Below are positions 2,905 to 54,026 of a stretch of 64,000 bases of DNA, piece by piece. The notes under the pieces are model-generated. The model searched no databases, was not told where the DNA came from, and worked only from the letters and a program-made list of their open reading frames with translations. Every line of letters starts with the position of its first letter. Positions within the stretch are counted from its first letter, which is position 1. Position numbers and translations under genes: made by a program. This stretch comes from an uncultured Clostridia bacterium (GTDB taxonomy: Bacteria > Bacillota > Limnochordia > DTU080 > RSA5), in NCBI GenBank assembly GCA_964424335.1, contig CAYRIY010000003.1:17727-81726 (forward strand), written 5' to 3'.

Positions 2905-4098
2905 ATGAAGCGGATCTACATGGACTATGCAGCGACGACGCCGCTCGACCCGGACGCGGCGGTGGCCATGCGGCCGTATCTCGAGGAGGTCTTTGGCAAT
3001 CCGTCGTCGCTTTACCGCACCGGCAGAGACGCGAGAAGGGCGCTCGACGATGCACGGGATCGCCTCGCGGCGATCTTGGGCGCGGACAGCCCCCGGGAGA
3101 TCATCTTTACGAGCGGAGGCTCGGAGGCTGATAACCTTGCGCTAAAAGGGGTTGCCTGGGCCCTCGAGAAGCAGGGGCGACACATCGTCACCTCGCAGAT
3201 CGAGCACCACGCGGTATTGCACGCGGCGGCGTTTTTGGCCGACCGGGGTTTTGAGGTTACGTACGTAGAGCCAAGCGGCGACGGGGTGATCGAGCCCGGT
3301 CGGGTCCGGGACGCGATGCGGGATGACACCATCCTCGTCTCCGTGATGCACGCGAACAATGAAACAGGCGTCATTCAGCCGATCGAGGAGATCGCAAAGA
3401 TCGCCCGAGAGCAAGGGGCGCTTTTCCACACGGACGCGGTCCAGACGGTGGGCCACATCCCCGTGAACGTGCGCGAGATCGACTGCGACCTCTTGTCGCT
3501 TTCGGCTCACAAGTTTTACGGTCCAAGGGGAGTCGGCGCGCTTTACGTCAAAAGGCGCACGCCGATCGTCCCGCTCATTCACGGCGGTGGGCAAGAGCAC
3601 GAACTGCGCGCCGGCACCGAATACGTGGCCGGGGCCGTGGGCATGGCAACAGCGCTGGAGCTGGCCGTGGAACGCATGCACGACGAAGCGGAGCGCCTTG
3701 CGGCCTTGCGCGACAGGCTCGCAGGCGGTTTGCTCGAGCTCGTGCCCGGCATAACCGTGAACGGACACTCTGTGCGACGACTTGCGGGTCACGTCAACGT
3801 GTCGATCGACGGCGTCGAAGGAGAGTCGGTGCTGCTCAACCTCGACATGAAGGGAATTGAGGCGTCGAGCGGATCTGCCTGCACGTCGGGGTCGATCGAG
3901 GCGTCTCACGTGTTGCTCGCCATGGGCCTTGATCGCCGAGCCGCTCTGGGATCGGTCCGCTTTACGCTTGGGCGCCACACCACGGCGGACGAGGTAGAAG
4001 AGGTGCTCGTCGTGCTGCCGCAAATCATCGATCGCTTGCGCAGCGCGCATTCAGATTCGGGGCGAGCGACCTACAGGGAACGCGAGGGGAAGGGTTGA
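2905..4098 (+). CDS. cysteine desulfurase (NifS/IscS family, PLP-dependent)
   Basis: SAHKFYGPRGVGALYV PLP-lysine region, SSGSACTS active-site cysteine loop. Confidence 0.9.
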   Translation: MKRIYMDYAATTPLDPDAAVAMRPYLEEVFGNPSSLYRTGRDARRALDDARDRLAAILGADSPREIIFTSGGSEADNLALKGVAWALEKQGRHIVTSQIEHHAVLHAAAFLADRGFEVTYVEPSGDGVIEPGRVRDAMRDDTILVSVMHANNETGVIQPIEEIAKIAREQGALFHTDAVQTVGHIPVNVREIDCDLLSLSAHKFYGPRGVGALYVKRRTPIVPLIHGGGQEHELRAGTEYVAGAVGMATALELAVERMHDEAERLAALRDRLAGGLLELVPGITVNGHSVRRLAGHVNVSIDGVEGESVLLNLDMKGIEASSGSACTSGSIEASHVLLAMGLDRRAALGSVRFTLGRHTTADEVEEVLVVLPQIIDRLRSAHSDSGRATYREREGKG

Positions 4099-4104
4099 GA
4101 CGCG

Positions 4105-5244
4105 ATGAGTGTCGCTAAGAGTAAGGGACGAGTGTTGGTTGCGATGAGCGGGGGCGTGGACAGCTCCGTCGCCGCGGCGTTGCTGATCGAGGAGGGGTAT
4201 GAGTGCATCGGCGTGACGATGCAGCTTTGGCCCGAGGATCTGCCTGTCGAGCATGAGAGCGGGTGCTGCTCGATCTCGGCGGTCGAAGACGCGCGCCGCG
4301 TGGCCAACAAACTCGGGATTCCCTACTACGTGCTCAACTTTGCACACTCCTTTGCCGAGCAGGTGATCGATCGGTTCGCCGAAGAGTACATGCAAGGTCG
4401 GACGCCCAACCCTTGCATCGTGTGCAATGAAAAGGTGAAGTTTGGCACGTTTCTCCAAAAGGCGCTCGAGCTTGAGTGCGACTACGTGGCGACGGGCCAC
4501 TACGCCTCGGTGGAGTACGATGCCGGGCGAGGACGATTTCTCCTTCGGCGCGGGAAAGACCGTTCCAAAGATCAAAGTTATACCCTGTACGGCCTCACGC
4601 AAGAGCAGTTGTCGCGCACGCTCCTGCCCCTGGGCAAGTACGACAAATCCAAAGTGCGGGAAGAAGCGCGCAAGCTTGGACTGATCACGGCCAACAAGCC
4701 CGACAGCCAGGAAATTTGCTTTGTGCCCGAAGGAGACTACCGCGGCTTCATGGAGCGGTACGCACCGGAGAGCGTCCACCCGGGTGAGATCGTCGACCTC
4801 GAAGGCAACGTGCTCGGGACTCACCGCGGCATCTCCTTTTATACGGTGGGCCAGCGCAAAGGCCTTGGGATCAGTCACCCGACGCCCTTGTACGTCGTGC
4901 GGGTCGATGCAAAGCGCAACCGCGTCGTCGTCGGCCCCAAGGAGGCCGTCGAAGGCGTTGCGCTCCTAGCCGATCCCGTCAACTTCGTTTCCGTGCCAAA
5001 GCTCGAAGGGCCGATGCACGTCACCTGTAAGATTCGGTATAAGTCGGAGGATACTTCGGCCGTGATCGAGCCCGGCCCGGACGGCGGCGTCGTAACCCGC
5101 TTTGAAGAGCCCGAGCGGGCGATCACGCCCGGCCAATCCGTCGTTTGGTACGACGGGGACATCGTCGTCGGCGGCGGAATCATCGTCAAGGACCTCAAAG
5201 TAGATCCCACAAGGCGCGAACCTGCTCGCGCAGCTTCCTCATAA
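4105..5244 (+). CDS. mnmA: tRNA 2-thiouridine(34) synthase MnmA
   Basis: PP-loop VAMSGGVDSSVAA, conserved CxxC and C-terminal domain; follows the desulfurase. Confidence 0.9.
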   Translation: MSVAKSKGRVLVAMSGGVDSSVAAALLIEEGYECIGVTMQLWPEDLPVEHESGCCSISAVEDARRVANKLGIPYYVLNFAHSFAEQVIDRFAEEYMQGRTPNPCIVCNEKVKFGTFLQKALELECDYVATGHYASVEYDAGRGRFLLRRGKDRSKDQSYTLYGLTQEQLSRTLLPLGKYDKSKVREEARKLGLITANKPDSQEICFVPEGDYRGFMERYAPESVHPGEIVDLEGNVLGTHRGISFYTVGQRKGLGISHPTPLYVVRVDAKRNRVVVGPKEAVEGVALLADPVNFVSVPKLEGPMHVTCKIRYKSEDTSAVIEPGPDGGVVTRFEEPERAITPGQSVVWYDGDIVVGGGIIVKDLKVDPTRREPARAASS

Positions 5245-5356
5245 GAGCCTGTTGCTCGTCCTAACGCGCAAAACGGCCGTGCCCTCGTGCGCCGCCCGGG
5301 CATACTAATGCCGGCAACTCGCTGCCAACCTTAAAGGGCGCCGAGGTGAGCGACGT

Positions 5357-5923
5357 TTGCGTCGAGGGCGGGACGTCATTGGAATCCCCATCATGGCAAC
5401 GGGCGCCGATCGGACGCTCGGAACTGTTGCCGACCTATACTTTAGGCCAGACGGCGCGGTCTGGGCGTTTCTCGTCGCGCCGGCGAAAGGCCTCTTCAAG
5501 CGTCCGATCCGAGTTGCGCTCGCACGATTTGACGCCATCCGCGACGGCAAAGCGTACATCGAACGCGACAAATTTTCCGACGAAAAAGGAGCCGACGTTC
5601 CAAATGTGACTGCGCGGGGCGAGCGGACCGGCCTGTGCGGCAAAAACTTGATCACGGCAGACGGAAAGCAGCTCGGAACCATCGCCGACGTCGTGCTCGA
5701 CGGGCTTACGCAAAAACGCCCCTCGGGCGCGGCGAAAGGAGTCTCCATGAGTCTTTGGGGCTTTGAAGTCTCCGACGGCATTGTCAAAGACTTACTCGAC
5801 GGGCGGCCGGTCGTCGAGGCCGCAGGCGCCTATCTCGACGGAGATGACGTGGTATTGGACGCAGCGCGCAAACACATGAACTTGGCCCCGAGCGGTCATG
5901 ATACCCGTGAAGGGAGTGAGTGA
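5357..5923 (+). CDS. tandem PRC-barrel domain protein (hypothetical)
   Basis: Two PRC-barrel-like repeats (IGIPI..GTVADLYF.., LITADGKQLGTIADVVLD); TTG start, real start could be ATG at 5393. Confidence 0.55.
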   Translation: MRRGRDVIGIPIMATGADRTLGTVADLYFRPDGAVWAFLVAPAKGLFKRPIRVALARFDAIRDGKAYIERDKFSDEKGADVPNVTARGERTGLCGKNLITADGKQLGTIADVVLDGLTQKRPSGAAKGVSMSLWGFEVSDGIVKDLLDGRPVVEAAGAYLDGDDVVLDAARKHMNLAPSGHDTREGSE

Positions 5924-7239: not shown

Positions 7240-7318
7240 TCGTGCCCCGCGCATGTCGAAAACGCGCCCCGATTTCCCCGAAAGCCGCATGGCAAAAGGC
7301 ATAGCGCGGGACTTTTGG

Positions 7319-7347
7319 TTGACAAAGGAAATGCGCTCTTGTAACAT
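7319..7347 (+). promoter_or_regulatory. sigma-A-type promoter upstream of alaS (TTGACA-17-TAACAT)
   Basis: Hexamers read directly with a 17-nt spacer, ~35 nt upstream of the alaS RBS. Confidence 0.4.
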
Positions 7348-7381
7348 TAATTAATGCATTTCCAGCGAGGAGGCTCGGCTC

Positions 7382-10048
7382 GTGAAGTCCTTGACTACGG
7401 ACCAACTGCGCGAGACGTACATCCGATTTTTCGAGCGCAAAGGTCACCACGTGGGTGAAAGCGCATCGCTCGTACCGCACGGCGACCCGACGCTCCTGTT
7501 GACGAGCGCCGGCATGGTCCCGTTTAAGCCATACTTTTTGGGCTGGGAGACGCCCAAGCATACGCGCATTACTACGTGCCAGCGTTGCGTTCGCACAGGC
7601 GACATCGACAACGTCGGCAAGACCGATCGACACCATACGTTCTTTGAAATGTTGGGAAATTTTTCCTTTGGTGATTACTTCAAGCAAGAGGCGATCGAGT
7701 TTGCTTGGGAGTTTGTCACCAAGGAGCTCGAATTTGATCCTGAGCGCCTGTGGGTCTCAGTCTACCTCGAGGACGACGAAGCCTACAACATATGGAACAA
7801 GGACATCGGCGTCCCCGAGGAGCGCATCGTGCGGCTCGGAAGGGAAGACAACTTTTGGGAGATCGGCGTGGGGCCGTGCGGACCTTGCTCGGAGATTTAT
7901 TACGACAAGGGCCCCGAGCACGGTTGCGGACGAGCGGAGTGCGCGCCAAGCTGTGACGAGTGCGAGCGGTACCTCGAGATCTGGAACCTCGTCTTCATCC
8001 AATTCCATCAGGATGAGGAGAAGAATCTGACGCCGCTCAAGAGCAAAGGCGTCGACACAGGGATGGGCCTCGAGCGGACGGCCTCGCTGCTTCAGTCCGT
8101 GCCGAGCAACTTCTCGATCGACCTCATTGCACCCATCGTGGAGCACATCGCTTCGATGAGCGGCGTGCAGTACGGCAGCGGCGGAGAGTCGGACGTGAGC
8201 GTCCGCGTCATCACCGACCACATGCGCGGTGTGACGTTCATGGTGGCCGACGGCATCTTGCCCGGCAATGAGGGGCGAGGCTATGTGCTGCGGCGGCTCC
8301 TGCGGCGCTCGGTGCGCCATGCGAGGCTTCTAGGCATCGAAGGTCGCTTTTTGCCGAGCGTCGTCGATCTCGTCATCGACTTGATGAAAGTGGGCTATCC
8401 GTATCTCGAGAGTCAGCGGGAGTACGTCCGCAACGTCGTGGCGACGGAGGAGGCCCGTTTTCACGAAACCCTCGATCAGGGCATGGAGATCCTCGAGCGC
8501 ATGACCGCACGCCTGCGCGAGCAGGGGCGGACGGTGCTTGGCGGCGAGGATGCGTTTCGCCTTTATGACACGTACGGTTTTCCCGTTGAGTTGACGGCGG
8601 AGATCTTGAAAAGCCACGGCTTTGAGTTGGACACGCAAGGGTTTGACGAGGCCATGGAGGCGCAGCGCGAGCGGGCGCGGGCCGCACGCGGCCAGATGGG
8701 CTATTTAGGGGACGTCGACGTCGCGTACGGCGACCTCGACCTTGGCGTGAATCGAACGCCGTTCGTGGGGTATGAGTCCCTAGAAGCACAGACCGAGCTG
8801 ATCGGCCTCGTCGTCAGGGGCGAGCAGGCAGGTCGTGCGGCCGCCGGCGAGCAAATCGAGGCGATTTTGGCGGTTACGCCGTTTTATCCAGAGGGCGGCG
8901 GACAGGTCCCCGACATTGGAACGATCGAAGGCCCAAGCGGCCGGATGCGGGTGGAGAGCGTCAGCAAGGTCGGAGACGGCATCATCGTCCATCGCGGCCA
9001 GGTCGAATCGGGCAGTCTCCAAGTGGGTGACCAGGTGCGCGCCGAGGTCGACGCCGAGCGCCGCAAGGATACGGAGCGCAACCATACGGCGACCCACCTC
9101 ATGCACAAGGCGCTCCACGAAGTGCTCGGCGACCATGCCAATCAGGCGGGATCGCTCGTGGCGCCGGATCGCTTGCGATTTGACTTTACTCACTTTAAAC
9201 CGCTTTCGAGGGACGAGCTCGCCGAGATCGAGCGGCGCGTCAACGAGCGCATCTTGGAAAACCTGCCGGTGACCGACTTTGTCACGGAGTTCGACAAGGC
9301 AAAGGAACTTGGCGCGATGGCCCTTTTTGGCGAGAAGTACGGCGATGAGGTCCGCGTCGTCAAGGTGGGCGAGTACAGCATCGAACTTTGCGGCGGAACC
9401 CACGTCAAATCGAGCTCCGACATAGGCATTTTCCGCATCGTGCAGGAAGGCGGCGTTGCGGCCGGCGTGCGGCGCATCGAGGCGGTGACCGCCCGCGGCG
9501 CGCTCAAGTTTCTGGCAAGCCGCGACGAGGCGCTTCGTGAGGCCGCCGACAAGTTGCAAGTCGCCCCAAGCGACCTGCCAAAACAGCTCGACAAGTTGCT
9601 TGGCGCGATGAAAGAGCAAGAGCGGCAGATCGAGCAGTTGAAGGGTAGGCTTGCGCAGGCGCAGGTCGGATCGTTGGCCGCTCGGGCGGAGGATTTTGGC
9701 GGCATCAAAGTGCTGGCCGCGGACGTCGAAGGGCTCGACATCGATGGCCTTCGCTCGCTTGGCGATCGACTCAAGCAGGAGATGGGAGCGGCGGTCGTCA
9801 TCTTGGGCTCGTCCGATGGCGGCAAGGTGCAGATGGTGGCAATGGCGAGCGACGCCGCCGCCGATCGCAGCGTCGACGTGAAAAAGGCCCTGACGCAGGC
9901 CGCAGCGCTCGTCGGCGGAGGCGGCGGGGGCAATCCCAAGATGGCGCAGGCGGGCGGGAAGGATCCATCTCGCTTGAAAGACGCGCTCGATGATGCCAAG
10001 GATCGCATTGTGCGCCAGCTCTTCGAACGGACGGCGAGCGAGGCGTAA
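7382..10048 (+). CDS. alaS: alanyl-tRNA synthetase
   Basis: 888 aa; class II AlaRS core, editing domain HTATHLMH...CGGTH, C-terminal DHHA1. Confidence 0.95.
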   Translation: MKSLTTDQLRETYIRFFERKGHHVGESASLVPHGDPTLLLTSAGMVPFKPYFLGWETPKHTRITTCQRCVRTGDIDNVGKTDRHHTFFEMLGNFSFGDYFKQEAIEFAWEFVTKELEFDPERLWVSVYLEDDEAYNIWNKDIGVPEERIVRLGREDNFWEIGVGPCGPCSEIYYDKGPEHGCGRAECAPSCDECERYLEIWNLVFIQFHQDEEKNLTPLKSKGVDTGMGLERTASLLQSVPSNFSIDLIAPIVEHIASMSGVQYGSGGESDVSVRVITDHMRGVTFMVADGILPGNEGRGYVLRRLLRRSVRHARLLGIEGRFLPSVVDLVIDLMKVGYPYLESQREYVRNVVATEEARFHETLDQGMEILERMTARLREQGRTVLGGEDAFRLYDTYGFPVELTAEILKSHGFELDTQGFDEAMEAQRERARAARGQMGYLGDVDVAYGDLDLGVNRTPFVGYESLEAQTELIGLVVRGEQAGRAAAGEQIEAILAVTPFYPEGGGQVPDIGTIEGPSGRMRVESVSKVGDGIIVHRGQVESGSLQVGDQVRAEVDAERRKDTERNHTATHLMHKALHEVLGDHANQAGSLVAPDRLRFDFTHFKPLSRDELAEIERRVNERILENLPVTDFVTEFDKAKELGAMALFGEKYGDEVRVVKVGEYSIELCGGTHVKSSSDIGIFRIVQEGGVAAGVRRIEAVTARGALKFLASRDEALREAADKLQVAPSDLPKQLDKLLGAMKEQERQIEQLKGRLAQAQVGSLAARAEDFGGIKVLAADVEGLDIDGLRSLGDRLKQEMGAAVVILGSSDGGKVQMVAMASDAAADRSVDVKKALTQAAALVGGGGGGNPKMAQAGGKDPSRLKDALDDAKDRIVRQLFERTASEA

Positions 10049-32803: not shown

Positions 32804-32829
32804 TGGTATAATATAAACGACTTTAGGAT

Positions 32830-33500
32830 AGGTGGTGCAGTATCCTAGTCAGACTTCGGCCTTTGAAGACGGGCCTAAAAATCCGTCGCGGGCACATCGA
32901 TGAAGTCCCTGGTGGTGGCCATCGACGCCCAGTCGGGGGTTGCTGCTGGGGGTTAAGGTGATGGGGCGATCTACAATGGCATGTAGGCGTTGACCCCGTC
33001 TCCGCGGAGACCCACGTCCGTGGGGAACCGCTTGCGTATCGTGCTTCGTGGTTCGGGCGCAAGCGGAGAACTACGGCTTGGGGTTAAACCTGCACGCGAT
33101 GCAAGTCGACAGGTCGGAGGTTCGGACTTGTCGCAAGTGTTGGGTGCAGTGTAGCCTGCCTTGAGTGGCGGGGGTGGGATAGCAGGTATCAGCTCGCTTG
33201 CTTCCATGGCCAGGGAGAAAGTGAGTCCTTGCTGCTTGAAACCCTTACTGCAAAAGAGGCTAGAAGGTTTTGAAGTCTGTCGAGGAAAACTCCTAGGCTG
33301 TTCCCTTGCGGGAGGCCTTGCGGGGATTACGGTGTGGTCTGAGTGGCAATCCAGCCTTGCCGTCGGTGACGCGGCAAAGTGGCCGGAAAGGGGAAACCGC
33401 CGAGGACGGTGACGTCGCGGAGGGCCGCTGGGAAAACCTGCTGGACCTTAAGCCACAATCTTTACTCGCAAGGCTGCCACCTATGCCGTTTTTTCTATTG
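32830..33500 (+). ncRNA. ole: candidate OLE (ornate, large, extremophilic) RNA
   Basis: ~860-nt gap between ispA and dxs with no credible ORF, dense GC-rich helices and GNRA-like loops, ending in a T-run near 33490; ispA-ole-(oapA)-dxs is the described OLE locus; boundaries approximate. Confidence 0.5.
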
Positions 33501-40969: not shown

Positions 40970-41035
40970 CTATGCAGGATTGCCCATAGTCGTGAGCGAA
41001 AAACAACACGTTGCGCCAAACGGGGGTGGTTCATT

Positions 41036-41800
41036 TTGGCTGAAAAGGTCAGGATCTTGATTGCCGACGACAATAAGGAATTTTGCGAACTCGTGGGCCA
41101 GATGATCGACTCCCAAGATGACATGGTCTGCATCGGGTGCGTTCACGATGGGCAGTCTGCGGTGCTCGCCGCAAAGGAAATGGCGCCGGACCTCGTCATC
41201 CTGGACCACGTCATGCCGGTGCTTGACGGCATAGGCGTGCTCGAATCGGTGCGCGCCTTCGAAGATCGCCCCCGCATCTTGATGCTCACGGCGTTTGGCC
41301 AAGAGCACTTGATCCAGCGCGCCGCCGAACTCGGCGTCGACTATTACTTGATGAAACCGTTCGACTTTCCCACATTGATCCAGCGCATTCGTCAAATATG
41401 CAACCCAAGCATCGCTCGCACGACCTTCCAAGATGAGAAGCGGCGACAGCAAATCGAAAAGCAGGTCGCCCAGTTGCTCTCGGCGCTCGGCGTGCCGCCA
41501 CATTTCAAAGGGTATACGTACCTGCGGGATGCCATCACATCGGTCGTCCTCGACCCCGATCTTCTGGGCGCGGTCACCACCGAGCTCTATCCGCAAGTCG
41601 CCAAGCAGCGCAACACCACGTCGACCAAAGTTGAGCGCGCCATCCGGCATGCGATCGAATCGACCTGGATGAGGGGCAACTTACAGTTTATCGACGAGCT
41701 CTTTGCCCACACGGTCGACGCAGACAAAGGAAAGCCTACCAACTCTTCGTTTATCGCTCGGCTCGCGGACCACGTGCGCCTCGAGCTGGTCGCGAGTTAG
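41036..41800 (+). CDS. spo0A: sporulation master regulator Spo0A
   Basis: Receiver domain (IADDN...DLVILD.VMP) and the Spo0A-specific C-terminal DNA-binding domain (PHFKGYTYLRDAI, ERAIRHAIE). Confidence 0.95.
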   Translation: MAEKVRILIADDNKEFCELVGQMIDSQDDMVCIGCVHDGQSAVLAAKEMAPDLVILDHVMPVLDGIGVLESVRAFEDRPRILMLTAFGQEHLIQRAAELGVDYYLMKPFDFPTLIQRIRQICNPSIARTTFQDEKRRQQIEKQVAQLLSALGVPPHFKGYTYLRDAITSVVLDPDLLGAVTTELYPQVAKQRNTTSTKVERAIRHAIESTWMRGNLQFIDELFAHTVDADKGKPTNSSFIARLADHVRLELVAS

Positions 41801-41862
41801 ACCAACACCTTCAGGAAGCTTTTAATCCCAGGATAGCCCGGCGAATCGAGGAGCGATACTAA

Positions 41863-41893
41863 AGGAAGAGGCAAGCAGCCTCTTCCTTTTTGT
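41863..41893 (+). terminator. rho-independent terminator after spo0A
   Basis: AGGAAGAGGC-AAGCA-GCCTCTTCCT followed by TTTTGT. Confidence 0.7.
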
Positions 41894-41914
41894 CGGTTAG
41901 GGGGGCATTCCGCC

Positions 41915-43030
41915 TTGCGTGGCAGTGTGAGGTTGGGCCGCAAGACCAAAGACCTCGTCGCCGCTCTCGCCCCGGGAGAGATCGCCGTCATCGCGCACGA
42001 GGATCTCGACGAGTTGGCAGCTCGGGGACTGATCGGCGCCAAAGTACAGGCGGTGATCAACGCGCGGCGTTCGATAAGCGGGCGATATCCCAACCCCGGT
42101 CCGCTCCTGCTTGCCCAGGCCTCGATTCCGATCGTCGACGCGGTAGGCGACGAGCTCTTTGAGCTGTTGCATGACGGAGACGTGGTCGAAATCGTCGACG
42201 GCCGGATCGTTCGGGACGAGACGCCGATTGCGAAGGGCGAAGTCCTCACCAAAAATGCGATCGACGAGCTCATGCGGCAGGCCAAGGCAAATGTAGTCAA
42301 AGAGATCGAGCGGTTCGTCGAAAACACGATCGAGTACGCGGAACGAGAGAAAGAGCTCGTGCTCGGCGCCGTCAGCTTCCCGCTGCTCAAGACAAGGATC
42401 GAGGATCGGCCGGTGCTTATTGTCGTGCGCGGGCGCGGATACAAAGACGACCTCGCGGCCATCGGATCGTACATCGAGGAGATCAAACCGGCGCTGATCG
42501 GCGTCGACGGGGGGGCGGACGCCCTCATGGAGGCGGGTTACCGTCCGGACATCGTGATCGGCGACATGGACAGCGTCAGCGATCGCGCCTTGCGGGCGGC
42601 TGTCGAACTCGTGGTCCACGCTTATCCGGACGGAAGGGCTCCGGGCCTTGAGCGGATCGAGCGTTTGGGCCTGGGGGCACATGTCGTGCCCTCGATCGGA
42701 ACGAGTGAGGATGTCGCCTTGTTGATGGCGTACGAGCTTGGGGCAAACGTGATCGTGGCGGTGGGAACCCATTCCAACATCGTCGACTTTCTCGAAAAAG
42801 GGCGCGCCGGCATGGCGAGCACCTTTCTCGTAAGGTTGAAAGTGGGAAGCATTCTTGTCGATGCAAAAGGACTTAGTCAGGTGTACAAAGGCAGGCCGCG
42901 GGGAAAATACCCTATGCTGGTCCTCCTTGCAGCGCTTGCGCCGACGCTCGTGGTCGCGAGTTTGAGCGAGCCGGTAGGACGGTGGATTCGCATGTTTGTG
43001 CTCTATCTCCGCCTTTCGCTTAACTTTTGA
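41915..43030 (+). CDS. steA: SteA-like protein (putative cytokinetic-ring protein; TPK-like domain)
   Basis: 371 aa; thiamin-pyrophosphokinase-like core (ALIGVDGGADALMEAG..PDIVIGDMDS); resembles mycobacterial Rv1697-type proteins encoded after recN; starts a 4-gene overlapping operon. Confidence 0.65.
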   Translation: MRGSVRLGRKTKDLVAALAPGEIAVIAHEDLDELAARGLIGAKVQAVINARRSISGRYPNPGPLLLAQASIPIVDAVGDELFELLHDGDVVEIVDGRIVRDETPIAKGEVLTKNAIDELMRQAKANVVKEIERFVENTIEYAEREKELVLGAVSFPLLKTRIEDRPVLIVVRGRGYKDDLAAIGSYIEEIKPALIGVDGGADALMEAGYRPDIVIGDMDSVSDRALRAAVELVVHAYPDGRAPGLERIERLGLGAHVVPSIGTSEDVALLMAYELGANVIVAVGTHSNIVDFLEKGRAGMASTFLVRLKVGSILVDAKGLSQVYKGRPRGKYPMLVLLAALAPTLVVASLSEPVGRWIRMFVLYLRLSLNF

Positions 43031-43887
43031 TGACGGAAAGGTGGTCTCTCGTGGTCGTCGACATTCGCTACCATCTGGCCTCGATCGTCGCCGTCTTTCT
43101 CGCACTTGGACTCGGGATCCTGGTCGGGGCAGCCCTCTCAGGCGGCGAAGGGCTCGAACAACAGGAGCGCTGGCTTGCAGCACTTGAGAGCGAGCTCCAA
43201 TCGTTGCGAGAGACCGGGGAGCGAAACGCGTCCCTGCTTCGCCAGACCGGCGCTGAACGCGACCGCTACAAGGCGTTTGCCGCCGAGCTAAGCGAGGTTG
43301 TCATGCGCGGCGTCCTCGACGGAGAGCGCGCCGCGCTCGTCGTATTGGGGGCCGATACGGCGTCTGCCGCACGCGTCGAAGACATCCTCCGCCAAGGCGG
43401 AGCCCAAGTCGTCCGAAAGGCCTCCGTCGCACTTTCTTGGACCGAGGCCGACCTCGTCCGATTGCTCGCGCCCCCCGAAGGGCGCGCCGCAGAAAACGCA
43501 GGTCTTGCGCTTGCCGCTGCCTTGATCGGCCAGCCGGCGTCCGGTTTTACGTCCGTCGAGTCTCCTGCGATCACCTTTCAGGCGCTATCGAGCGAGCAGC
43601 CCACCATCGCCGCGCTCGTCCTTGGCGGGCATCCTGACCGCTTTCGAGAGATCGCCGCTTCATTGGCGGCAGCCCTCAAGACCCAAGGAATACGGACGGC
43701 AGCCGTTGTCTTGGACGAGGACGCGTGGAATCCGACGCTCGGCCAGTGGGACGTCCCCTACGTCGCCCACTTTGGCACGCCGATGGGCGACTTGAGCCTC
43801 GTCGTCTTGCTTGGCGGCGCGGGCGGGTCGGGCGGATTTGGCCTTGGAGACGGTCGGGCGCTTTGGCCTGCCCAGGATTTTCGATGA
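43027..43887 (+). CDS. steB: SteB/MctB-family membrane-anchored protein
   Basis: N-terminus VVDIRYHLASIVAVFLALGLGILVGAAL matches the MctB/SteB signature, followed by a coiled-coil; start overlaps the steA stop. Confidence 0.6.
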   Translation: MMTERWSLVVVDIRYHLASIVAVFLALGLGILVGAALSGGEGLEQQERWLAALESELQSLRETGERNASLLRQTGAERDRYKAFAAELSEVVMRGVLDGERAALVVLGADTASAARVEDILRQGGAQVVRKASVALSWTEADLVRLLAPPEGRAAENAGLALAAALIGQPASGFTSVESPAITFQALSSEQPTIAALVLGGHPDRFREIAASLAAALKTQGIRTAAVVLDEDAWNPTLGQWDVPYVAHFGTPMGDLSLVVLLGGAGGSGGFGLGDGRALWPAQDFR

Positions 43888-44564
43888 CGGCGACCGCGAT
43901 CGTTCCGGCTTACAACGAAGAGGGAAGCGTGGGGCCGACGGTGCGCGCGCTATTGAACTCGGGCGCGGTCGAGCGGGTCGTTGTCATCGATGACGGGTCG
44001 GTGGACGGGACAAGCGTCGAAGCTAGGCGGGAAGGGGCGGAAGTGATCGCGCTCGGCCGAAACAGCGGGAAGGGTGTAGCGCTAAACGAGGGCCTTGGGG
44101 CGGTGGAGGCGGCGATCTATCTGCTGGCCGATGCAGACTTAAAAGAAAGCGCGGGCCGGCTCGCCGCGCTTGTCGATGCGGTCCGCCGCGATGGCGCAGA
44201 TTTAGCGATCGCCCAGTTCGATACTACAGGCGGGTTTGGGGTCGCCAAAAAGATTGCTCGCTACGGGATTCGCCACTTGACGCGCCGTGACATGAAGAGC
44301 CCACTTTCGGGCCAACGGGCCTTGTCCAAGCGAGCATTGGATGCGGTCATGCCGTTTCCGCACGGGTGGGGCGTGGAGGTGGCGATGACGGTGCGAGCGC
44401 TGTGGAATGGGCTCTCCGTCGTGGAGGTGCCTGTGGCGCTCGAACATAGAGTGACGGGCCGCGACGTCGCCGGATTTATGCACCGGGGCAGGCAGTGCGC
44501 CGCGGTCGCCTTGACCCTCTGGCGGTTAAATTCCCGCAAGGAGCGGCGACGCGCACGTGGATGA
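43884..44564 (+). CDS. family 2 glycosyltransferase (polyprenyl-phosphate hexosyltransferase-like, 226 aa)
   Basis: GT-A fold motifs IVPAYNEE, VIDDGS.DGT, DAD; ATGA overlap with the steB stop. Confidence 0.75.
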   Translation: MTATAIVPAYNEEGSVGPTVRALLNSGAVERVVVIDDGSVDGTSVEARREGAEVIALGRNSGKGVALNEGLGAVEAAIYLLADADLKESAGRLAALVDAVRRDGADLAIAQFDTTGGFGVAKKIARYGIRHLTRRDMKSPLSGQRALSKRALDAVMPFPHGWGVEVAMTVRALWNGLSVVEVPVALEHRVTGRDVAGFMHRGRQCAAVALTLWRLNSRKERRRARG

Positions 44565-45396
44565 GTTTGGGGTCGTCGTCGTGCTTTTCTTGATATCAGG
44601 ACTTTCTTATGTGATCGCACTGATCCTCGTCAAACCCGCCTGCGGTCTCCTTGCACGCGGAGGACTGCGAGCCAAAAACTTCAGGCACGTCTTTATACCG
44701 ACCGGCGTCGGAATCGTATTGCCGCTGGCGTCGCTCGTTCCGATCGGGATTTTCGGGTCGCCTCCGCAGTCGTCCCTTTGGCTTTTTATCCTGTTTGGCG
44801 TCGCTATGTTGGGGCTTGTCGACGATGTTGCGGGAAAGGGGGAGCACGGCGGTTTCACGAGCCATCTGCGTGCGCTTAGGCGCGGCACGCTGACGACGGG
44901 CTCGGTGAAGGCGCTCTTTGGAGGTGGGGTAGCCCTCTATGCAGGCTGGATGCTCCACGGCAGTGCACTTCCGGCCGCGCTTGCCGGTGGCGTCATCGCT
45001 TTGTCGACCAACGCCGTCAACCTACTTGACCTACGGCCAGGGCGCGCCATCAAGGGGGCGATGCTCCTCTCGGTCGCCGGCTTGATCGCTCTAACCTTTG
45101 CGGGTTCGCCCGTGGCGGAGGCGTGGCAAAGCGCGCTGCTCGCCGCCGCTCCCCTCGGGGCGGGCGTCGCTTTGCTTTGGGGCGACCTCAGGGCTCGTTT
45201 CATGATCGGCGATACGGGCGCAAACACACTCGGGATCAGCGCTGGTATGATATTGGCATTGCTCCCTTACTTCCTCCAGGGCGTGGCGCTCCTTGTTCTC
45301 GTATTGATTCACGCAATATCGGAGCGACGGTCCCTCTCCTCGTTGATCGAAACGACGCCTATTCTCAAGTGGCTCGACGACTTGGGCAGGGGATAG
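44557..45396 (+). CDS. MraY/WecA-family (PF00953-like) polyprenyl-phosphate sugar-phosphate transferase homolog, divergent
   Basis: Multi-TM; LVDDVAG (DDxxD-like), NAVNLLDLRPGRA in place of NAxNxxDGxDGL, MIGDTGANTLG (like FMGDxGS); start overlaps the GT2 stop. Confidence 0.6.
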   Translation: MDEFGVVVVLFLISGLSYVIALILVKPACGLLARGGLRAKNFRHVFIPTGVGIVLPLASLVPIGIFGSPPQSSLWLFILFGVAMLGLVDDVAGKGEHGGFTSHLRALRRGTLTTGSVKALFGGGVALYAGWMLHGSALPAALAGGVIALSTNAVNLLDLRPGRAIKGAMLLSVAGLIALTFAGSPVAEAWQSALLAAAPLGAGVALLWGDLRARFMIGDTGANTLGISAGMILALLPYFLQGVALLVLVLIHAISERRSLSSLIETTPILKWLDDLGRG

Positions 45397-45459
45397 TCGT
45401 CCGGCAAACCCACACTTGGGCAGGGACCGGCCCTCATACCCAGAATCCCTTTCGGAAGT

Positions 45460-47604
45460 ATGCCGACCAACGACCAAGTTAGCGAATACTTCGGACCGTC
45501 CGGTTCCCTATCCCAGATCTTGCCCGGCTTTGAGCACCGGCGCGAACAAGTCGAGTTGGCGCTCGGCATCGAGCGCGCCCTTCGCAGGGGCGAGGTCGGC
45601 TTTTTCGAGGCGGGCACGGGAACAGGAAAATCGTTCGCCTACCTCATTCCAGCGGCCCGTTATGCGATCGAGCGCGAGCGACCCGTGGTCGTCTCTACGT
45701 ACACGATCTCCCTTCAAGAGCAGCTCATTCATAAAGACATTCCCGTCATCAAGCGGATCTTTCCAGAACTCAAGACCGTCCTGGTCAAGGGTTGGTCGAA
45801 CTATATCTGCAGGCTCCGTCTGGACGCGGCCCTACGGGCGCCTGGCGAGTTAATCGATCTATCGATCGGCGACTCGCTCCTTCGGATTGCGGCGTGGGCG
45901 GAGAAGACGACCGATGGAACCCGCTCGGACCTGCCGTTTCGCCCTTCTCCATCCCTGTGGGACGAAGTGTGCGCTGAAAGCGACAGTTGTCTCAAGACTG
46001 CGTGCCCTCATTACTCCGGCTGTCCGCTCTTTAGAGATCGCAGCGCAATGATCGGCGCGCATCTTTTGATCGTCAACCACCACCTGCTCTTTGCCGACCT
46101 CTCGGTCCGAAGAGAACTGGGGTGGGAGACGGAGCAGGCGGTGCTTCCAAGCTACGATGCCGTCATCGTGGACGAGGCCCATCACGTCGAAGACGTTGCG
46201 AGCGAGTACATGGGGTACGGGCTCTCGAGCGTCGGGGTGGCGCAGCTCTTTGGTCGCTTGCTGCGAAGCCGCCAAGGACGACAGTTCGGCCTGCTCCCGA
46301 TGATCGAGGGGGCACTTTCTCAAAGAATCGGCGAGGAAGAGTGCGAGGAGGCCCTGGTTCAGCTCCGCACCGAGACTGCCGGCGCGTTTCAGCGCGCCCA
46401 AGTAGCCGTCGGGAAATTCTTGGACAGCGTAAAGAGTTACACCCTCAGCGAGCGCGAGACGGGCAATGAGGTCGAGCCCGTTCGAATCGAGCCCAGGATG
46501 GAAGCGCATTGGCTAGAGCGTGTGGGGCCTGCGGCCGAAGAGGCGTCTGAACTCGTGGACCGACTCGCAAGCCACATTCAGCGTTTTCGGAAAGTGCTTT
46601 ATGAAGGGGAAGAGGGCCGAGATCCCGCCTTGCTTTCCCGCATCGACGCGATGCGAAGGCGGCTCTCAAATCTCTCGCGAGCGCTCGGCCAGTTTACGGC
46701 TTTGGACTTTGAAAATCTCGTCTATTGGATCGAACACACCTCGAAGGCCAGGGAGAACACGCGCCTTGTGAGCGCTCCGATCGACGTCGGTCCCTATGTG
46801 CTCGAGTGGGTCGAACGCCAATGCGACACCCTCGTCCTCACCTCCGCGACCTTGGCCGTGCACGGGTCGTTCGAATACACTCGAAAGCGTCTTGGGCTTT
46901 CGGGCTCGGTTGAGATCGCTGGGAGACTCGGGGTTAGAGAGCAAATGATCGACTCACCTTTTGACTACGAAGGCCAAGTGGTCCTGGGGGCGATCGACGA
47001 CCTGCCCGAACCCAACACACACGCCTACCGACAGGCGCTGCCGGAGGCGTTGTTTCAGCTCGTCACGGCGAGTGAAGGACGAGCGCTCGTGTTGTTCACT
47101 TCATACGCGCTCCTTGCGTCCGTCGACCGCGATTTGCGCGACCGCCTCGAAGCGATGGACTACGCGCTGCTCTCGCAAGGTCAGGCGCCCCGCTCACACA
47201 TCCTGGAGCGCTTCAAGGCGGGAGGGCGCTCCGTCTTGCTGGGCACCGATAGCTTTTGGGAAGGGGTCGACGTCCCGGGAGAGGCTTTGTCGATGGTCGT
47301 CGTGACGCGCCTACCCTTTGACGTTCCCACCGACCCGCTCGCCGCTGCCAGGGCCGAGCGCATTCGCGCCATGGGTGGATCGCCCTTCGTCGAATACTCA
47401 CTGCCGCGCGCCGCCTTAAAGCTCAAGCAAGGATTTGGTCGACTCATCCGCACCCAGAGCGATCGGGGCGCCGTCATTCTCTGCGACCGCAGAATCACAA
47501 CGAAGCGATACGGCAAGTACTTCCTCGATGCACTGCCTCCGTGCCGGGTCGTGACGGGAAACGCCCGCGACGTAGCGCTCGAAGTAAAGCGCTTCCTCTC
47601 GTAA
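45460..47604 (+). CDS. dinG: DinG-like ATP-dependent DNA helicase (Rad3/XPD family, helicase only)
   Basis: Walker A AGTGTGKS, DEAH box VIVDEAHH, Fe-S cysteine cluster (CAESDSCLKTACPHYSGC); no N-terminal exonuclease domain. Confidence 0.85.
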   Translation: MPTNDQVSEYFGPSGSLSQILPGFEHRREQVELALGIERALRRGEVGFFEAGTGTGKSFAYLIPAARYAIERERPVVVSTYTISLQEQLIHKDIPVIKRIFPELKTVLVKGWSNYICRLRLDAALRAPGELIDLSIGDSLLRIAAWAEKTTDGTRSDLPFRPSPSLWDEVCAESDSCLKTACPHYSGCPLFRDRSAMIGAHLLIVNHHLLFADLSVRRELGWETEQAVLPSYDAVIVDEAHHVEDVASEYMGYGLSSVGVAQLFGRLLRSRQGRQFGLLPMIEGALSQRIGEEECEEALVQLRTETAGAFQRAQVAVGKFLDSVKSYTLSERETGNEVEPVRIEPRMEAHWLERVGPAAEEASELVDRLASHIQRFRKVLYEGEEGRDPALLSRIDAMRRRLSNLSRALGQFTALDFENLVYWIEHTSKARENTRLVSAPIDVGPYVLEWVERQCDTLVLTSATLAVHGSFEYTRKRLGLSGSVEIAGRLGVREQMIDSPFDYEGQVVLGAIDDLPEPNTHAYRQALPEALFQLVTASEGRALVLFTSYALLASVDRDLRDRLEAMDYALLSQGQAPRSHILERFKAGGRSVLLGTDSFWEGVDVPGEALSMVVVTRLPFDVPTDPLAAARAERIRAMGGSPFVEYSLPRAALKLKQGFGRLIRTQSDRGAVILCDRRITTKRYGKYFLDALPPCRVVTGNARDVALEVKRFLS

Positions 47605-47648
47605 AGCATACCTCTACGAACGTCTACATAGATTTCATCGACGGCCAA

Positions 47649-47771
47649 TCGGATTTTATAAGAAGTCACCCACTTGGCCGCCCGACTTTGTCGGTCCGGC
47701 CCAGCCACGAGCGGATGAAAATCCGCGGGTCGGCAAGTGGGGACACATGCTGGACCGATTTTCAAGAGGAG
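47649..47771 (+). promoter_or_regulatory. copy B of the 123-nt paralogous leader element ending in the deacetylase SD
   Basis: Ungapped alignment to 26546..26668; a GCATA-16-CATAGAT forespore-sigma-like promoter lies just upstream (47606..47633). Confidence 0.7.
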
Positions 47772-47779
47772 GTGGGGGC

Positions 47780-48607
47780 GTGTTCGTCGTCTTTCGCATG
47801 CGGAGGATCTTCCTTGCACTTGGGATTGTCGCCGCCGTCGCGCTCTTTGGCCATTACGCCGCCCGTCCACTCGCCCAAGCCGTGGCGACGGCGGTCTCCG
47901 AGCGGAAAGTTCCGATCTACAAAGTCGCCCGTGACGACAACAAGGTCTCCATTTCCCTCGATGCAACGTGGGGCGTGGAGCAGACCGACGAACTCCTCGA
48001 CATCCTCGACCGCCACGGCGTGAAAACGACCTTCTTTCTCGCTGGTTACTGGGTGGAAAAACATCCCGACTACGTGAAAAAGATAGCCGACCGCGGGCAT
48101 GAAATCGGAAATCACTCGTACGAACATCCCCACATGAACGCCCTGACGCGGGAGAAAATCGTGGCGGACCTCAAGCGAAATCACGATCTGTTGAAAGAGA
48201 TCACGGGGCAGGACGCGTTCTTGTTTCGGCCGCCGTTTGGCGAGTACAGCAACAAAGTGATCGAGGCGGCCAGTGAGCTTGGTTACTTTACGATCCAGTG
48301 GTCGATCGACTCGCTCGACTGGAAAGACGTGAGCGCAGACTTCATGGTCAACCGTGTGCTCAGTAACGTCGGCCCGGGAGACATCATCCTTTTTCACAAC
48401 GCAGGCAAGCATACGCCCAAGGCGATCGATGTCTTGCTCGCCCAGCTCAAGTCCCGCGGCTTTGACGTGGTTCCGATCTCCGAATTGATCTACCGAGATC
48501 ATTACCTCATCGAAAGTCACTCCGGAGTCCAGCGAAGACAAGAGCCGCCGCCCGGAGCGAGCGATGATGGGACTCCGCCCGCTCAAAACAGAGGGGATGA
48601 AACGTGA
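47780..48607 (+). CDS. polysaccharide deacetylase (NodB domain, PdaA-like)
   Basis: N-terminal TM plus NodB motifs (SLDATWG, HEIGNHSYEHPH, LFRPPFGEY, IILFH); GTG 7 nt after AAGAGGAGG (ORF opens at ATG 47747 inside the element). Confidence 0.8.
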   Translation: MFVVFRMRRIFLALGIVAAVALFGHYAARPLAQAVATAVSERKVPIYKVARDDNKVSISLDATWGVEQTDELLDILDRHGVKTTFFLAGYWVEKHPDYVKKIADRGHEIGNHSYEHPHMNALTREKIVADLKRNHDLLKEITGQDAFLFRPPFGEYSNKVIEAASELGYFTIQWSIDSLDWKDVSADFMVNRVLSNVGPGDIILFHNAGKHTPKAIDVLLAQLKSRGFDVVPISELIYRDHYLIESHSGVQRRQEPPPGASDDGTPPAQNRGDET

Positions 48608-49392
48608 ATCAAGGCTCGCTTCGCGTCATGGTGATTACACGAAAGCACCTCTATGTCTGTTTGGCTGTGATTGGGCTCATGGCCGGCATCATCAAAGGGC
48701 TCGGCGCCGTTTCGCCGACTGCTCCTGCGACGACGGCGAATGAAGGCGGCGTCGCCATTTTGTCGCAAGATCAGCCGGTGCGCCAAGTTCCGGGGCGTTC
48801 CGGTGAAATGGCGTTTACGGTCAACGTCGATTGGGGAAACGAAGTGTTGGTCGATATGCTCGACGTCTTCGACCGGTACGGCGTCAAAGTGACGTTTTTT
48901 CTGACGGGCCGCTGGGCAAAGGCTTTCCCTGAAATGGCCGCGGAGCTCGCGCGACGCGGACATGAAATCGGCAACCACGGCGTCTCACACGCCCATCCGA
49001 CTCAGCTTTCGGCATCCGATCTCAGAAAGCACATCGGCGATAACGTCGAGATCTTGCGCGCAGCTACAGGCGTCGAACCGGTGCCCCTTTACGCGCCTCC
49101 ATACGGAGAGCAGGACGGGCGGGTCGTGAGTGAAGCGGCAGGGTTAGGACACTGGACGACGCTGTGGACGCTCGATACGATCGATTGGCAAAACCCTTCG
49201 CCCGACACGATCTACAGGCGGATCGTGCCCCGGGCGGCTGATGGCGCCATCGTGTTGATGCATCCAAAGCCACAGACCCTCGAAGCGCTCCCGCGCATGA
49301 TCGAGGGTCTGAAAGAGAACGGTTACACGCTCGTGCCTCTACATGAGTTGATCGTGGGCGCGGCGCCTTTGCCTTTGGAAAATCCGTCCTAA
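48604..49392 (+). CDS. polysaccharide deacetylase (NodB domain, PdaB-like), tandem paralog
   Basis: NodB motifs (TVNVDWG, HEIGNHGVSHAHP, LYAPPYGE, IVLMHP); GTG start overlaps the upstream stop. Confidence 0.8.
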   Translation: MNQGSLRVMVITRKHLYVCLAVIGLMAGIIKGLGAVSPTAPATTANEGGVAILSQDQPVRQVPGRSGEMAFTVNVDWGNEVLVDMLDVFDRYGVKVTFFLTGRWAKAFPEMAAELARRGHEIGNHGVSHAHPTQLSASDLRKHIGDNVEILRAATGVEPVPLYAPPYGEQDGRVVSEAAGLGHWTTLWTLDTIDWQNPSPDTIYRRIVPRAADGAIVLMHPKPQTLEALPRMIEGLKENGYTLVPLHELIVGAAPLPLENPS

Positions 49393-50693
49393 ACCAAATT
49401 GTTGCGGATCACGGACCATATCCCCGGATCCTCTTGACCGAGTCGCCACAGGGAGATGCCTGCGAGGCCGTACTTTTTCACGAGCTCGATCTTGTGCGAG
49501 ACGCTCGAGCGGTCCTCGAAGTACACCGTCCTGCCTGCGCCGTATTTGAAATACGGCACTTTGGCGACGTCGTCCCACTGAATGCGGGCCCCATGAGCGC
49601 TCGCCAATTCCATCGCCTGCCGATACGTCACCGATCGACCGCGGCCGCTCGCAGGCCAATCGTACCCGTACGCCGGGATGCCAAGCACGATCTTCTCGGG
49701 CGGCACGCCGGTCGATATCGCATACCGGACGACGCGCTCGACCCAGCCGATCGACGCGACGGGGCCGGGTGGGCCGCCACGCCAGTGTTCGTCGTAGGTC
49801 ATGAGCATCATCTGGTCCACGTACTGGCCGATCGTGCCGTAGTCAAATCCGCCCGCCCACGTGCTCGAAATATCGTTGTAGGTCTTGGACGGAACGGCAA
49901 TCGTAACCGAGAGGCCCGCGGGCCCTAGCCGCTCTGAAAGCGCCTTGATGAACAGATTGAGATTTTGTCGATCGCTTGGGAGCACCATCTCGAAATCGAT
50001 GTGCACTCCGGACATGTCCCACTCGCGCAGCACTCGGTAAATGTCTTCGACGGCGTTTTGCCTCGACTGGGCGTTCGCGAGCACCGCGTGGGAAAGACTT
50101 ACATCAAAGTTGACCTCGCCGGATTGAGTCTGGCGAATGTTGTGCACGAGCGCAAGACTTTTTAGCCCGTTCTCGCCTGCCACCCGGAGCGCTTGCCCAA
50201 CGTCGCGGGCGTCGAATGAAAGGTTCATGTAGCCGCTGGGCAACACTTCCCACATCCAGGGGACGAGCGTCGTGATCACGTCCAGGTTTTCTCGCAGCGA
50301 CGGCCCGGACGGGCGAAGCGAGTCCGTGACGTAGTAGGCGACGACATCGTATTTGCCGCGCCTTGCTTGAGTGTTGGAGGTGTGGCTCGTTGAAACAGCG
50401 AAGGTATTGACGTAGCCTACCTGGCCGTTCGCAAGTCGTACGCGGTACCAGCCGTTTGTTTCGTCAAGGACGGTCAACGAGTCGCCTCGGACAAGCGTCG
50501 CGATGACCTCATCGCTGCGCGGAACCTCGTGAACGGACACTTTGTTGGCCCGGATGACGCCCGGACGTTCATTTTGGGTCGAAATCACGGCCGGCGCATC
50601 TGTATGGGACGGGGCATTTTTCGGGCCACCTCCTAGGAAGCCTCCCGTCAAGAGGAGTATAGATAGTAGTGTGATGAGGGCAGTCTGGGACAA
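49389..50693 (-). CDS. GH18 glycoside hydrolase with N-terminal SH3b-like domain (YdhD/YaaH-like spore peptidoglycan hydrolase)
   Basis: Signal peptide, SH3b (GDSLTVLDETNGWYRVRL), GH18 catalytic DGVHIDFE; TTG after GAGGAGG; its stop overlaps the convergent deacetylase stop. Confidence 0.8.
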   Translation of the reverse strand: MSQTALITLLSILLLTGGFLGGGPKNAPSHTDAPAVISTQNERPGVIRANKVSVHEVPRSDEVIATLVRGDSLTVLDETNGWYRVRLANGQVGYVNTFAVSTSHTSNTQARRGKYDVVAYYVTDSLRPSGPSLRENLDVITTLVPWMWEVLPSGYMNLSFDARDVGQALRVAGENGLKSLALVHNIRQTQSGEVNFDVSLSHAVLANAQSRQNAVEDIYRVLREWDMSGVHIDFEMVLPSDRQNLNLFIKALSERLGPAGLSVTIAVPSKTYNDISSTWAGGFDYGTIGQYVDQMMLMTYDEHWRGGPPGPVASIGWVERVVRYAISTGVPPEKIVLGIPAYGYDWPASGRGRSVTYRQAMELASAHGARIQWDDVAKVPYFKYGAGRTVYFEDRSSVSHKIELVKKYGLAGISLWRLGQEDPGIWSVIRNNLV

Positions 50694-53668: not shown

Positions 53669-53835
53669 CCGCGTCCTGCTCACCGCTGGGAGTCGAAAGG
53701 GCTCGGAGCATCCCGAGCCCTTTCGCTGCCTCGTTGTCAGCGCCCGTCACGGGCTAGGCAATGGTTGACAAGCCTTTCCCAATGAGGCAAAATGGGCTTA
53801 AAAGAATCCAATTGCAGACTAACTGCGAGGGCCAT

Positions 53836-53996
53836 AGAGGCGCGAGAGACAAGAGTAGGGTCGTTGAGGCAAGGGCAGCCAGTGAAGCGACCGCGAAAGG
53901 GGATCTCGCCGAAGTTCGACTTTTCGCCCGGTAAAGTCGGACTGGGGTGGCGGCAAAGAGCCGTCGCACTGCCACCGTGATCGGTGGAGCGCTATC
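53836..53996 (+). promoter_or_regulatory. lysine riboswitch (L-box) aptamer
   Basis: L-box blocks in order: AGAGGCGCGAG...AGAGTAGGG, GAAAGGGGATCTCGCCGAAG, GTCGCACTG, GGTGGAGCGCTATCC, all close to the B. subtilis lysC leader. Confidence 0.8.
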
Positions 53997-54026
53997 CCGG
54001 CAGCACGAAAAGGGCTTATAGCGTTC

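Follow-up and report, generated by a model that had tools for sequence, protein, structure and literature searches.

Two described systems lie closest to the locus reported here. In Mycobacteriales, SteA and SteB (Cg1603-1604; Rv1697-Rv1698/MctB) form a regulator of RipA/RipC in cell separation; structures of both proteins have been solved, and SteB binds the coiled coil of RipA (PMC12977500, mBio 2026). The same study finds that SteA has a conserved pocket similar to the phosphonucleotide sites of TPK and CstII, leaves its ligand open, and reports stabilisation of C. glutamicum SteA by GDP and UDP, with binding shown for Corynebacterium SteA only. It also notes that steAB lies just after spo0A in some Bacillota and suggests a possible sporulation role, with no glycosyltransferase mentioned. 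The second system is the cdr20291_1053-1057 cluster of Clostridioides difficile, which is essential and of unknown function (PMC12157513, bioRxiv 2025). The study lists the gene products as a 373-aa pyrophosphokinase, a 291-aa exported protein, a 230-aa family 2 glycosyltransferase, a 274-aa glycosyl transferase and a 355-aa DUF3866 protein. Cells in which the cluster is knocked down are short, swollen and phase-bright and form chains; neither SteA nor MctB is mentioned. Here we describe a four-gene cassette that brings these two systems together, located in a 64,000-nt stretch of DNA from an uncultured Clostridia bacterium (the window, to whose + strand all window coordinates refer). The cassette consists of steA, steB, a glycosyltransferase (GT) gene and a gene for a membrane protein resembling phosphosugar transferases (PNPT-like).

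The four open reading frames (ORFs) occupy positions 41915-45396, 3′ of dxs-tlyA-nadK-argR-recN-spoIVB-spo0A, and overlap consecutively by 1, 4 and 8 nt, in agreement with the initial annotation, which had described four coupled ORFs after spo0A:

41915-43030, + strand, steA: TTG start; 371 aa; no overlap with the preceding gene
43030-43887, + strand, steB: ATG start (alternative TTG at 43027); 285 aa; 1-nt overlap with steA (TGATG)
43884-44564, + strand, GT2 gene: ATG start; 226 aa; 4-nt overlap with steB (ATGA)
44557-45396, + strand, PNPT-like gene: GTG start; 279 aa; 8-nt overlap with the GT gene (GTGGATGA)

We lean towards reading the cassette as one operon that encodes a transmembrane SteA-SteB complex for cell division and separation together with a dedicated two-enzyme glycosyl-transfer unit. 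In function, it is probably a vegetative division/envelope module in which SteAB is joined to two-step glycosyl transfer on a lipid carrier, the version of SteAB found outside Mycobacteriales. Among the many loci with this cassette, that of the window is not exceptional. In a C. difficile genome, spo0A is followed by SteA (373 aa), MctB (291 aa), GT2 (230 aa), a PNPT-like protein (274 aa) of the same family as that of the window, and DUF3866 (355 aa), sizes that agree with Table 2 of PMC12157513. Because order, domains and sizes match, we treat the window cassette as the counterpart of cdr20291_1053-1056. The two loci differ in the next gene, which encodes DUF3866 in C. difficile and a DinG-like helicase in the window. 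The initial annotation had called the arrangement undescribed, which has to be narrowed: the single parts, steAB after spo0A (PMC12977500) and the C. difficile cluster (PMC12157513), are already published, and neither paper connects the two. Our literature searches found no paper joining SteAB to a GT/PNPT pair, and the link between the two threads appears new.

ORF1 is SteA, as the initial annotation had proposed. It scores 487.9 bits against the NCBIfam equivalog NF040608 division_SteA (cutoff 150), with residues 2-367 aligned to a profile of 369 positions, and it matches the solved core of MtSteA (PDB 9HMY, E=1.3e-67, residues 3-325; 9HMZ, E=3e-49). Pfam SteA-like_C (PF12555) is recognised over residues 318-366, the C-terminal membrane segment (27.6 bits, cutoff 26.4), and Pfam TPK_catalytic scores just under its cutoff (30.4 versus 30.7 bits). 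These matches predict a nucleotide-binding protein of TPK/MptE-like type that is cytoplasmic and has a membrane helix at its C-terminus. In addition, the SteA profile matches an archaeal MptE-type 6-hydroxymethyl-dihydropterin pyrophosphokinase (8SD5, E=1e-6) and TPKs over the motifs DGG...GDxDS...HAY. D198, D217, D219, H235, Y237 and D266 are virtually invariant among 147 SteAs derived from the loci, and the motif sites of residues 198-235 are encoded at window positions 42506-42619. MtSteA carries G198 and L235 and CgSteA carries N217, T219 and L235, whereas the locus-derived SteAs keep D198, D217, D219 and H235. From residue conservation, SteA outside Mycobacteriales may be catalytic or metal-dependent, which we regard as a lead only and not as evidence of activity.

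ORF2 belongs to the SteB/MctB family, again as initially annotated: it scores 75.5 bits against Pfam PF11382 MctB (cutoff 25.6), over profile positions 2-128 of 306 only. An N-terminal hydrophobic stretch, which by analogy with published SteB would be the membrane anchor, is followed by a presumed extracytoplasmic domain. The window SteB as a single sequence has no match in the PDB. A profile of 16 proteins from the steB position of the cassette, including that of the window, matches MctB (9M9Z, E=4.6e-18; 9HLE) and Cg1604 (8AU6, E=1.5e-15) over nearly full length, matches that actinobacterial-like rows of the profile may drive. At this cassette position, proteins of Romboutsia and Solirubrobacterales match PF11382 over the whole profile.

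Compared with the Mycobacteriales system, SteA of the window is an orthologue and SteB a member of the same MctB family, and in both cases the two genes are adjacent, coupled and located after tlyA-nadK-recN. The window SteB ectodomain is much more divergent than that of Mycobacteriales SteB, and in the window no RipA partner, nor any other partner hydrolase for SteB, was identified. GT and PNPT-like genes are not adjacent to steAB in Mycobacteriales, whereas here they are packed with steAB in one operon.

ORF3 carries Pfam PF00535 (74.6 bits) and the motifs DAD (D83, D85) and PLSGQR, with a basic helix of 30 residues at its C-terminus; its start at 43884 is backed by homologs, as opposed to 43725 for the mechanical ORF. 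The structural model, built with AlphaFold2 (AF2) from database homologs, is confident (predicted local distance difference test score, pLDDT, 94) and contains no transmembrane (TM) segment, pointing to a small soluble GT-A glycosyltransferase. The family profile matches GpgS and P. furiosus DPMS equally well in the PDB (73.6 bits each). By Foldseek, the first 35 matches are all GpgS (E~1e-14, TM-scores 0.71-0.79), with ArnC, GtrB, MpgS and DPMS following about 100-fold weaker. The window GT shares the GT-A fold and a DxD motif with GpgS (GT81) and with the polyprenyl-phosphate GT2 enzymes DPMS, GtrB and ArnC, and its PLSG and GfGVE motifs resemble those of GpgS; DPMS, GtrB and ArnC have a TM or interface-helix pair, whereas the window GT has only one long basic C-terminal helix. 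The protein reaches 57.3 bits against the GpgS equivalog NF010496 (cutoff 262) and stays far below every NCBIfam equivalog cutoff. The initial annotation had assigned ORF3 to GT2 enzymes of polyprenyl-phosphate hexosyltransferase type. The GT2 Pfam assignment stands; we rejected a confident polyprenyl-phosphate hexosyltransferase label on account of the tie with GpgS by sequence, the first rank of GpgS by fold and the lack of a TM segment.

ORF4 is predicted to be a divergent, truncated membrane protein with the MraY/WecA/GPT fold, of PNPT type. The start at 44557 is favoured by homolog alignment and by a confident AF2 model of TM1; the alternative GTG at 44611 (261 aa) is the gene-caller choice on an identical ENA contig. 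Searched by itself, the window protein has no Pfam match at E<=0.01 and reaches 16 bits against MraY_archaea (cutoff 450). Many family members carry PF00953 (for example P0466, 45.6 bits, cutoff 27), and the family profile matches E. coli MraY (E=8e-8), with D89/D90 aligned to D115/D116, D219 aligned to D267, and NAVNLLD aligned to NAVNLTD; the alignment stops near profile position 235 of 273. We take D115, D116 and D267 to be the three essential aspartates of E. coli MraY. The AF2 model (pLDDT 93.5) has about nine TM helices and ends after TM9 with short helices, and its top 28 Foldseek matches in the PDB are all MraY or human GPT (probability 1.0, TM-scores 0.6-0.69).

The motifs of the PNPT-like protein are a DD pair (D89 and D90, in DDxxG), NAVNLLDLRPGRA (residues 152-164) and GDTG (residues 218-221). 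Residues N41, D89, D90, H103, K118, N152, N155, D158, R160, P161, R163, D219, N223, E256, S259 and D274 are invariant in the family, and the equivalents of the MraY Asp triad, D89, D90 and D219, are invariant across 26 diverse members. In the loop corresponding to NxxNxxDGxDG, N152, N155 and D158 are kept, and the second Asp is replaced by P161, flanked by R160 and R163. All 26 of the diverse members have the resulting NLLDLRPGR loop unchanged, and a pattern search with it across 185,579 species genomes retrieves at least 592 relatives that were confirmed. Because it is invariant across members, NLLDLRPGR is a family signature and not decay. Thus, the initial annotation was right about the PF00953-superfamily fold and the retained Asp residues of DD and GDTG, whereas its degenerate motif is ruled out by the invariance and the relatives found by pattern, and its DDxxD reads DDxxG. 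An exhaustive profile search at E<=1e-30 returned 1,825 PNPT-like clusters at 50% identity.

The PNPT-like proteins have in common with MraY, WecA, TagO and human GPT the fold, the DD at the cytoplasmic end of TM3, NxxNxxD and the Asp of GDxG(S/A)N (equivalent to E. coli MraY D267). They differ in being about 80 residues shorter (279 versus about 360 aa), in lacking TM10 and the HHH/HIHH sugar-recognition loop, in having LRPGR in place of GLDGL (GxDGL), and in having C-terminal cytoplasmic helices with the invariant E256, S259 and D274. They form a family separate from MraY/WecA/TagO/GPT. WecA-WbbL and TagO-TagA are pairs of a PNPT and a small soluble GT that start wall glycopolymer linkage units. 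The two enzymes are encoded together there, as would suit the making of a polyprenyl-PP-disaccharide, and the pairing seen here resembles this; in contrast, such pairs are not known to accompany SteAB genes, and the PNPTs in them have the full length and canonical loops. As a separate observation, the 90%-identity cluster of P0122, the 274-aa PNPT-like protein of C. difficile, also lists 230-aa entries named 'glycosyltransferase family 2', which may be a clustering oddity or fused or mis-called ORFs.

The same four-gene order recurs in about 120 independent loci. Median gaps across loci are 14 nt for steA-steB, 9.5 nt for steB-GT and 3 nt for GT-PNPT, against 202 nt for spo0A-steA; by its recurrence and short gaps, the arrangement is far beyond chance. 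In surveys seeded with the PNPT-like protein (80 best genome loci), steA-steB lies upstream in every locus with enough upstream DNA. When SteA was the seed, 49 metagenome loci had 3.3 kb or more of downstream DNA, and in 46 of them the PNPT-like gene lies downstream of steAB. The co-conservation that the initial annotation had left to genome comparison is thus borne out from both seeds.

The cassette is found in Bacillota, Armatimonadota, Actinomycetota and one Anaerolineae metagenome-assembled genome (MAG), and it is whole in five loci without the recN/spo0A flank. Bacillota have the order spoIVB-spo0A-steA-steB-GT-PNPT, and recN-steA-steB-GT-PNPT is found in an Armatimonadota MAG (L047) and an Actinomycetota MAG (L026). 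About 25 Solirubrobacterales/Thermoleophilia loci read recN-steA-steB-PNPT, without the GT gene, followed by pyrG or MurJ. The recN-steA-steB synteny with Actinomycetota, noted for mycobacteria in the initial annotation together with the intervening spoIVB-spo0A, is confirmed, and the best-supported reading is that spoIVB-spo0A was inserted into an old recN-steA junction in Bacillota. On this reading, the cassette adjoins spo0A because of an old gene order, recN-[spoIVB-spo0A]-steA, and not because of sporulation specificity. A gene for a MurJ-family flippase follows the PNPT-like gene in four Thermoleophilia-type loci, and in two further loci (L127 3753-5519; L139 8016-9725) it comes directly after steAB, with no PNPT; these neighbours hint at a lipid-linked substrate.

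GT-PNPT fusions occur in two architectures. In the 477-aa fusion of L137, the C-terminal helix of the GT runs straight into cytoplasmic loop A of the PNPT domain, with TM1 deleted. The fusions of L141 (540 aa) and P0469 (527 aa) have two hydrophobic segments between the domains. They are collinear at 41% identity, and this fusion is therefore old and maintained. In both types the GT lies at the cytoplasmic face, next to the active site of the PNPT domain, which fits consecutive steps on one lipid carrier.

Several loci have peculiarities of their own. In L075 and L151, which come from a Coriobacteriia MAG and a metagenome contig, steA and the PNPT-like gene are separated by a large ORF without a Pfam match (791 aa, 7305-9680, and 755 aa, 3198-5465). 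The complete, Bacillota-typical cassette of L021 ('Lutibacter sp. B2', Bacteroidota) and the Bacillota-typical GT2-PNPT at a contig end of L030 ('Caulobacteraceae' MAG, Alphaproteobacteria) are likely due to contamination or mis-binning. In Capsulimonas, the PNPT-like gene follows a gene for an Mrp/ParA-type ATPase and overlaps the end of a convergent gene that encodes an SH3+NlpC/P60 hydrolase.

In the mechanism that we propose, the PNPT-like enzyme would move a phospho-sugar from a UDP-sugar to polyprenyl phosphate at the cytoplasmic face, using the Asp triad D89, D90 and D219, with the Arg pair R160 and R163 selecting the substrate. The GT, as suggested by the GT-PNPT fusions, would carry out the neighbouring step on that carrier, with release of UDP or GDP. 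The TPK-like pocket of SteA would then bind the released nucleotide or nucleotide-sugar, and a SteA2B2 helix bundle would pass the signal to SteB outside the membrane. SteB, in turn, would position a peptidoglycan hydrolase for septal cleavage; this route from SteA to the hydrolase is shown in Mycobacteriales only.

Several points weigh against this reading. That SteAB senses or contacts the GT/PNPT pair is a proposal that we infer. For the GT, a soluble phospho-acceptor, as for GpgS, and a polyprenyl-phosphate acceptor are both compatible with the data. Essentiality in C. difficile may be apparent for upstream genes, to which polarity of CRISPR interference and transposon insertions could lend the phenotype of downstream ones. 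The DUF3866 gene, which follows the PNPT-like gene directly in 26 of 59 spo0A-type loci (the C. difficile copy, L161 7830-8897, encodes a soluble protein, and DUF3866 has no informative relative in the PDB), has no homolog in the whole window by tblastn. Activity of the PNPT-like protein is not assured, since it has neither TM10 nor an HHH loop and carries Pro in place of the second loop Asp. Finally, the fusions join GT and PNPT only and leave SteAB out, the PNPT-like gene lies apart from steAB in Capsulimonas (L164 8001-9701), and adjacency alone is weak evidence because the whole dxs-tlyA-nadK-recN...pyrG region is frozen synteny.

These last three points also speak for the alternative that survives best, namely that the cassette reflects frozen synteny only, with GT and PNPT forming an independent pathway, such as a wall glycopolymer linkage unit, without coupling to SteAB. 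It draws further on tlyA, nadK, recN and pyrG being conserved neighbours across phyla with no known functional link, and on Mycobacteriales SteAB working without these enzymes (PMC12977500). However, one third of the steB-GT junctions overlap or abut, at a median gap far below that of spo0A-steA; the cassette holds together where its flank is lost; Thermoleophilia keep the PNPT-like gene directly after steB though the GT gene has been dropped; and the chaining phenotype of C. difficile agrees with the known phenotype of SteAB loss. We consider frozen synteny alone unlikely.

The truncation of the PNPT-like protein raises a second alternative, that it is a pseudoenzyme, serving as a membrane scaffold or as a sensor of polyprenyl phosphate or lipid intermediates that feeds carrier status to SteAB, with the GT acting elsewhere. 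Beside the shorter chain and the missing TM10 and HHH loop, the gain of two invariant Arg around the Pro of the loop and the failure of the window protein to match Pfam or to exceed 16 bits against MraY_archaea would be in line with lost catalysis. Pseudoenzymes, however, usually lose catalytic residues, whereas the equivalents of the three MraY-essential Asp, both Asn and the first loop Asp are invariant across the 26 diverse members, and that fusions to a GT whose DxD motif is intact have been maintained speaks for catalysis in consecutive steps. Active human GPT, too, is not known to have either Asp in this loop. A pseudoenzyme is, in our judgement, improbable.

Two elements, both read from the letters, separate spo0A from steA in the window:

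41861-41891, + strand, intrinsic terminator of spo0A: 12-bp stem AAAGGAAGAGGC/GCCTCTTCCTTT, loop AAGCA, then a T run
41899-41905, + strand, Shine-Dalgarno-like AGGGGGG: ends 9 nt 5′ of the TTG of steA

The terminator hairpin dominates both the minimum free energy and the centroid folds of the 114-nt spo0A-steA intergenic region. Its end lies only 23 nt from the steA start codon, leaving no room for a conventional promoter between the two, so that steA may be expressed by read-through of the terminator or from a promoter 5′ of the hairpin. A consensus scan of 41000-45700 gave no promoter-like sites and only terminator matches at the level of shuffled sequence; it missed the spo0A terminator because the stem takes up part of the T run. 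No Rfam elements were found in the spo0A-steA spacer.

The least likely of the three alternatives is a role specific to sporulation, in which the cassette would carry out envelope glycosylation at the sporulation septum or during engulfment under Spo0A-linked control, as the initial annotation had suggested. The cassette lies directly after spoIVB-spo0A in most Bacillota loci, the short spacing would permit read-through from spo0A, polysaccharide deacetylase and SH3-GH18 genes, presumably of types known from spore-cortex metabolism, lie nearby, and a possible sporulation role has been raised for steAB (PMC12977500). We nevertheless rejected this role as very improbable, since recN and not spo0A is directly upstream in the Armatimonadota and Actinomycetota cassettes, spo0A has its own strong terminator, and the C. 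difficile genes are essential in vegetative growth, with vegetative shape and chaining defects on knockdown.

Within the preferred reading of a vegetative division/envelope module, SteA would bind a nucleotide as a sensor. A bolder extension, which we hold to be doubtful, is that SteA outside Mycobacteriales is an active TPK/MptE-like enzyme, a pyrophosphokinase or nucleotide-dependent transferase, and would work together with the GT and the truncated PNPT as a membrane machine of three enzymes, making a polyprenyl-linked (pyro)phospho-sugar for septal wall maturation, with SteB coupling it to hydrolase positioning. In Mycobacteriales, the neighbouring enzyme genes would then have been lost and SteA retained in a partly degenerate form that senses its ligand, which would explain why the SteA ligand has been difficult to find. 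More generally, our results raise the possibility that mycobacterial SteAB derives by reduction from a larger module.

Two published questions meet at this locus, namely the nucleotide-containing ligand of SteA (PMC12977500) and the role of cdr20291_1053-1057 (PMC12157513). If SteAB outside Mycobacteriales is hard-wired to a pair of enzymes that use UDP- or GDP-sugars, the search for the ligand narrows to that pathway, and the C. difficile genes gain a named function, SteAB-type control of cell separation. The distinct PNPT subfamily would, given its occurrence in at least 592 species genomes, be a candidate antibiotic target apart from MraY and WecA.

In the window, the region 3′ of the cassette (45460-50693) contains the DinG-like helicase gene, two polysaccharide deacetylase genes that overlap each other (47747-48607 and 48604-49392) and, in convergent orientation, an SH3+GH18 gene; we take the deacetylase and SH3-GH18 gene types to be linked to spore cortex or wall modification. 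The dinG-pda arrangement likewise lies 3′ of the cassette in L057, L068, L082 and L116. Elsewhere in the window, a full-length OLE (ornate large extremophilic) RNA is located directly 5′ of dxs (32816-33496, + strand, 486 bits). A 6S RNA (686-873, + strand, 80 bits) and a lysine riboswitch (53827-54002, + strand, 104 bits) are also present.

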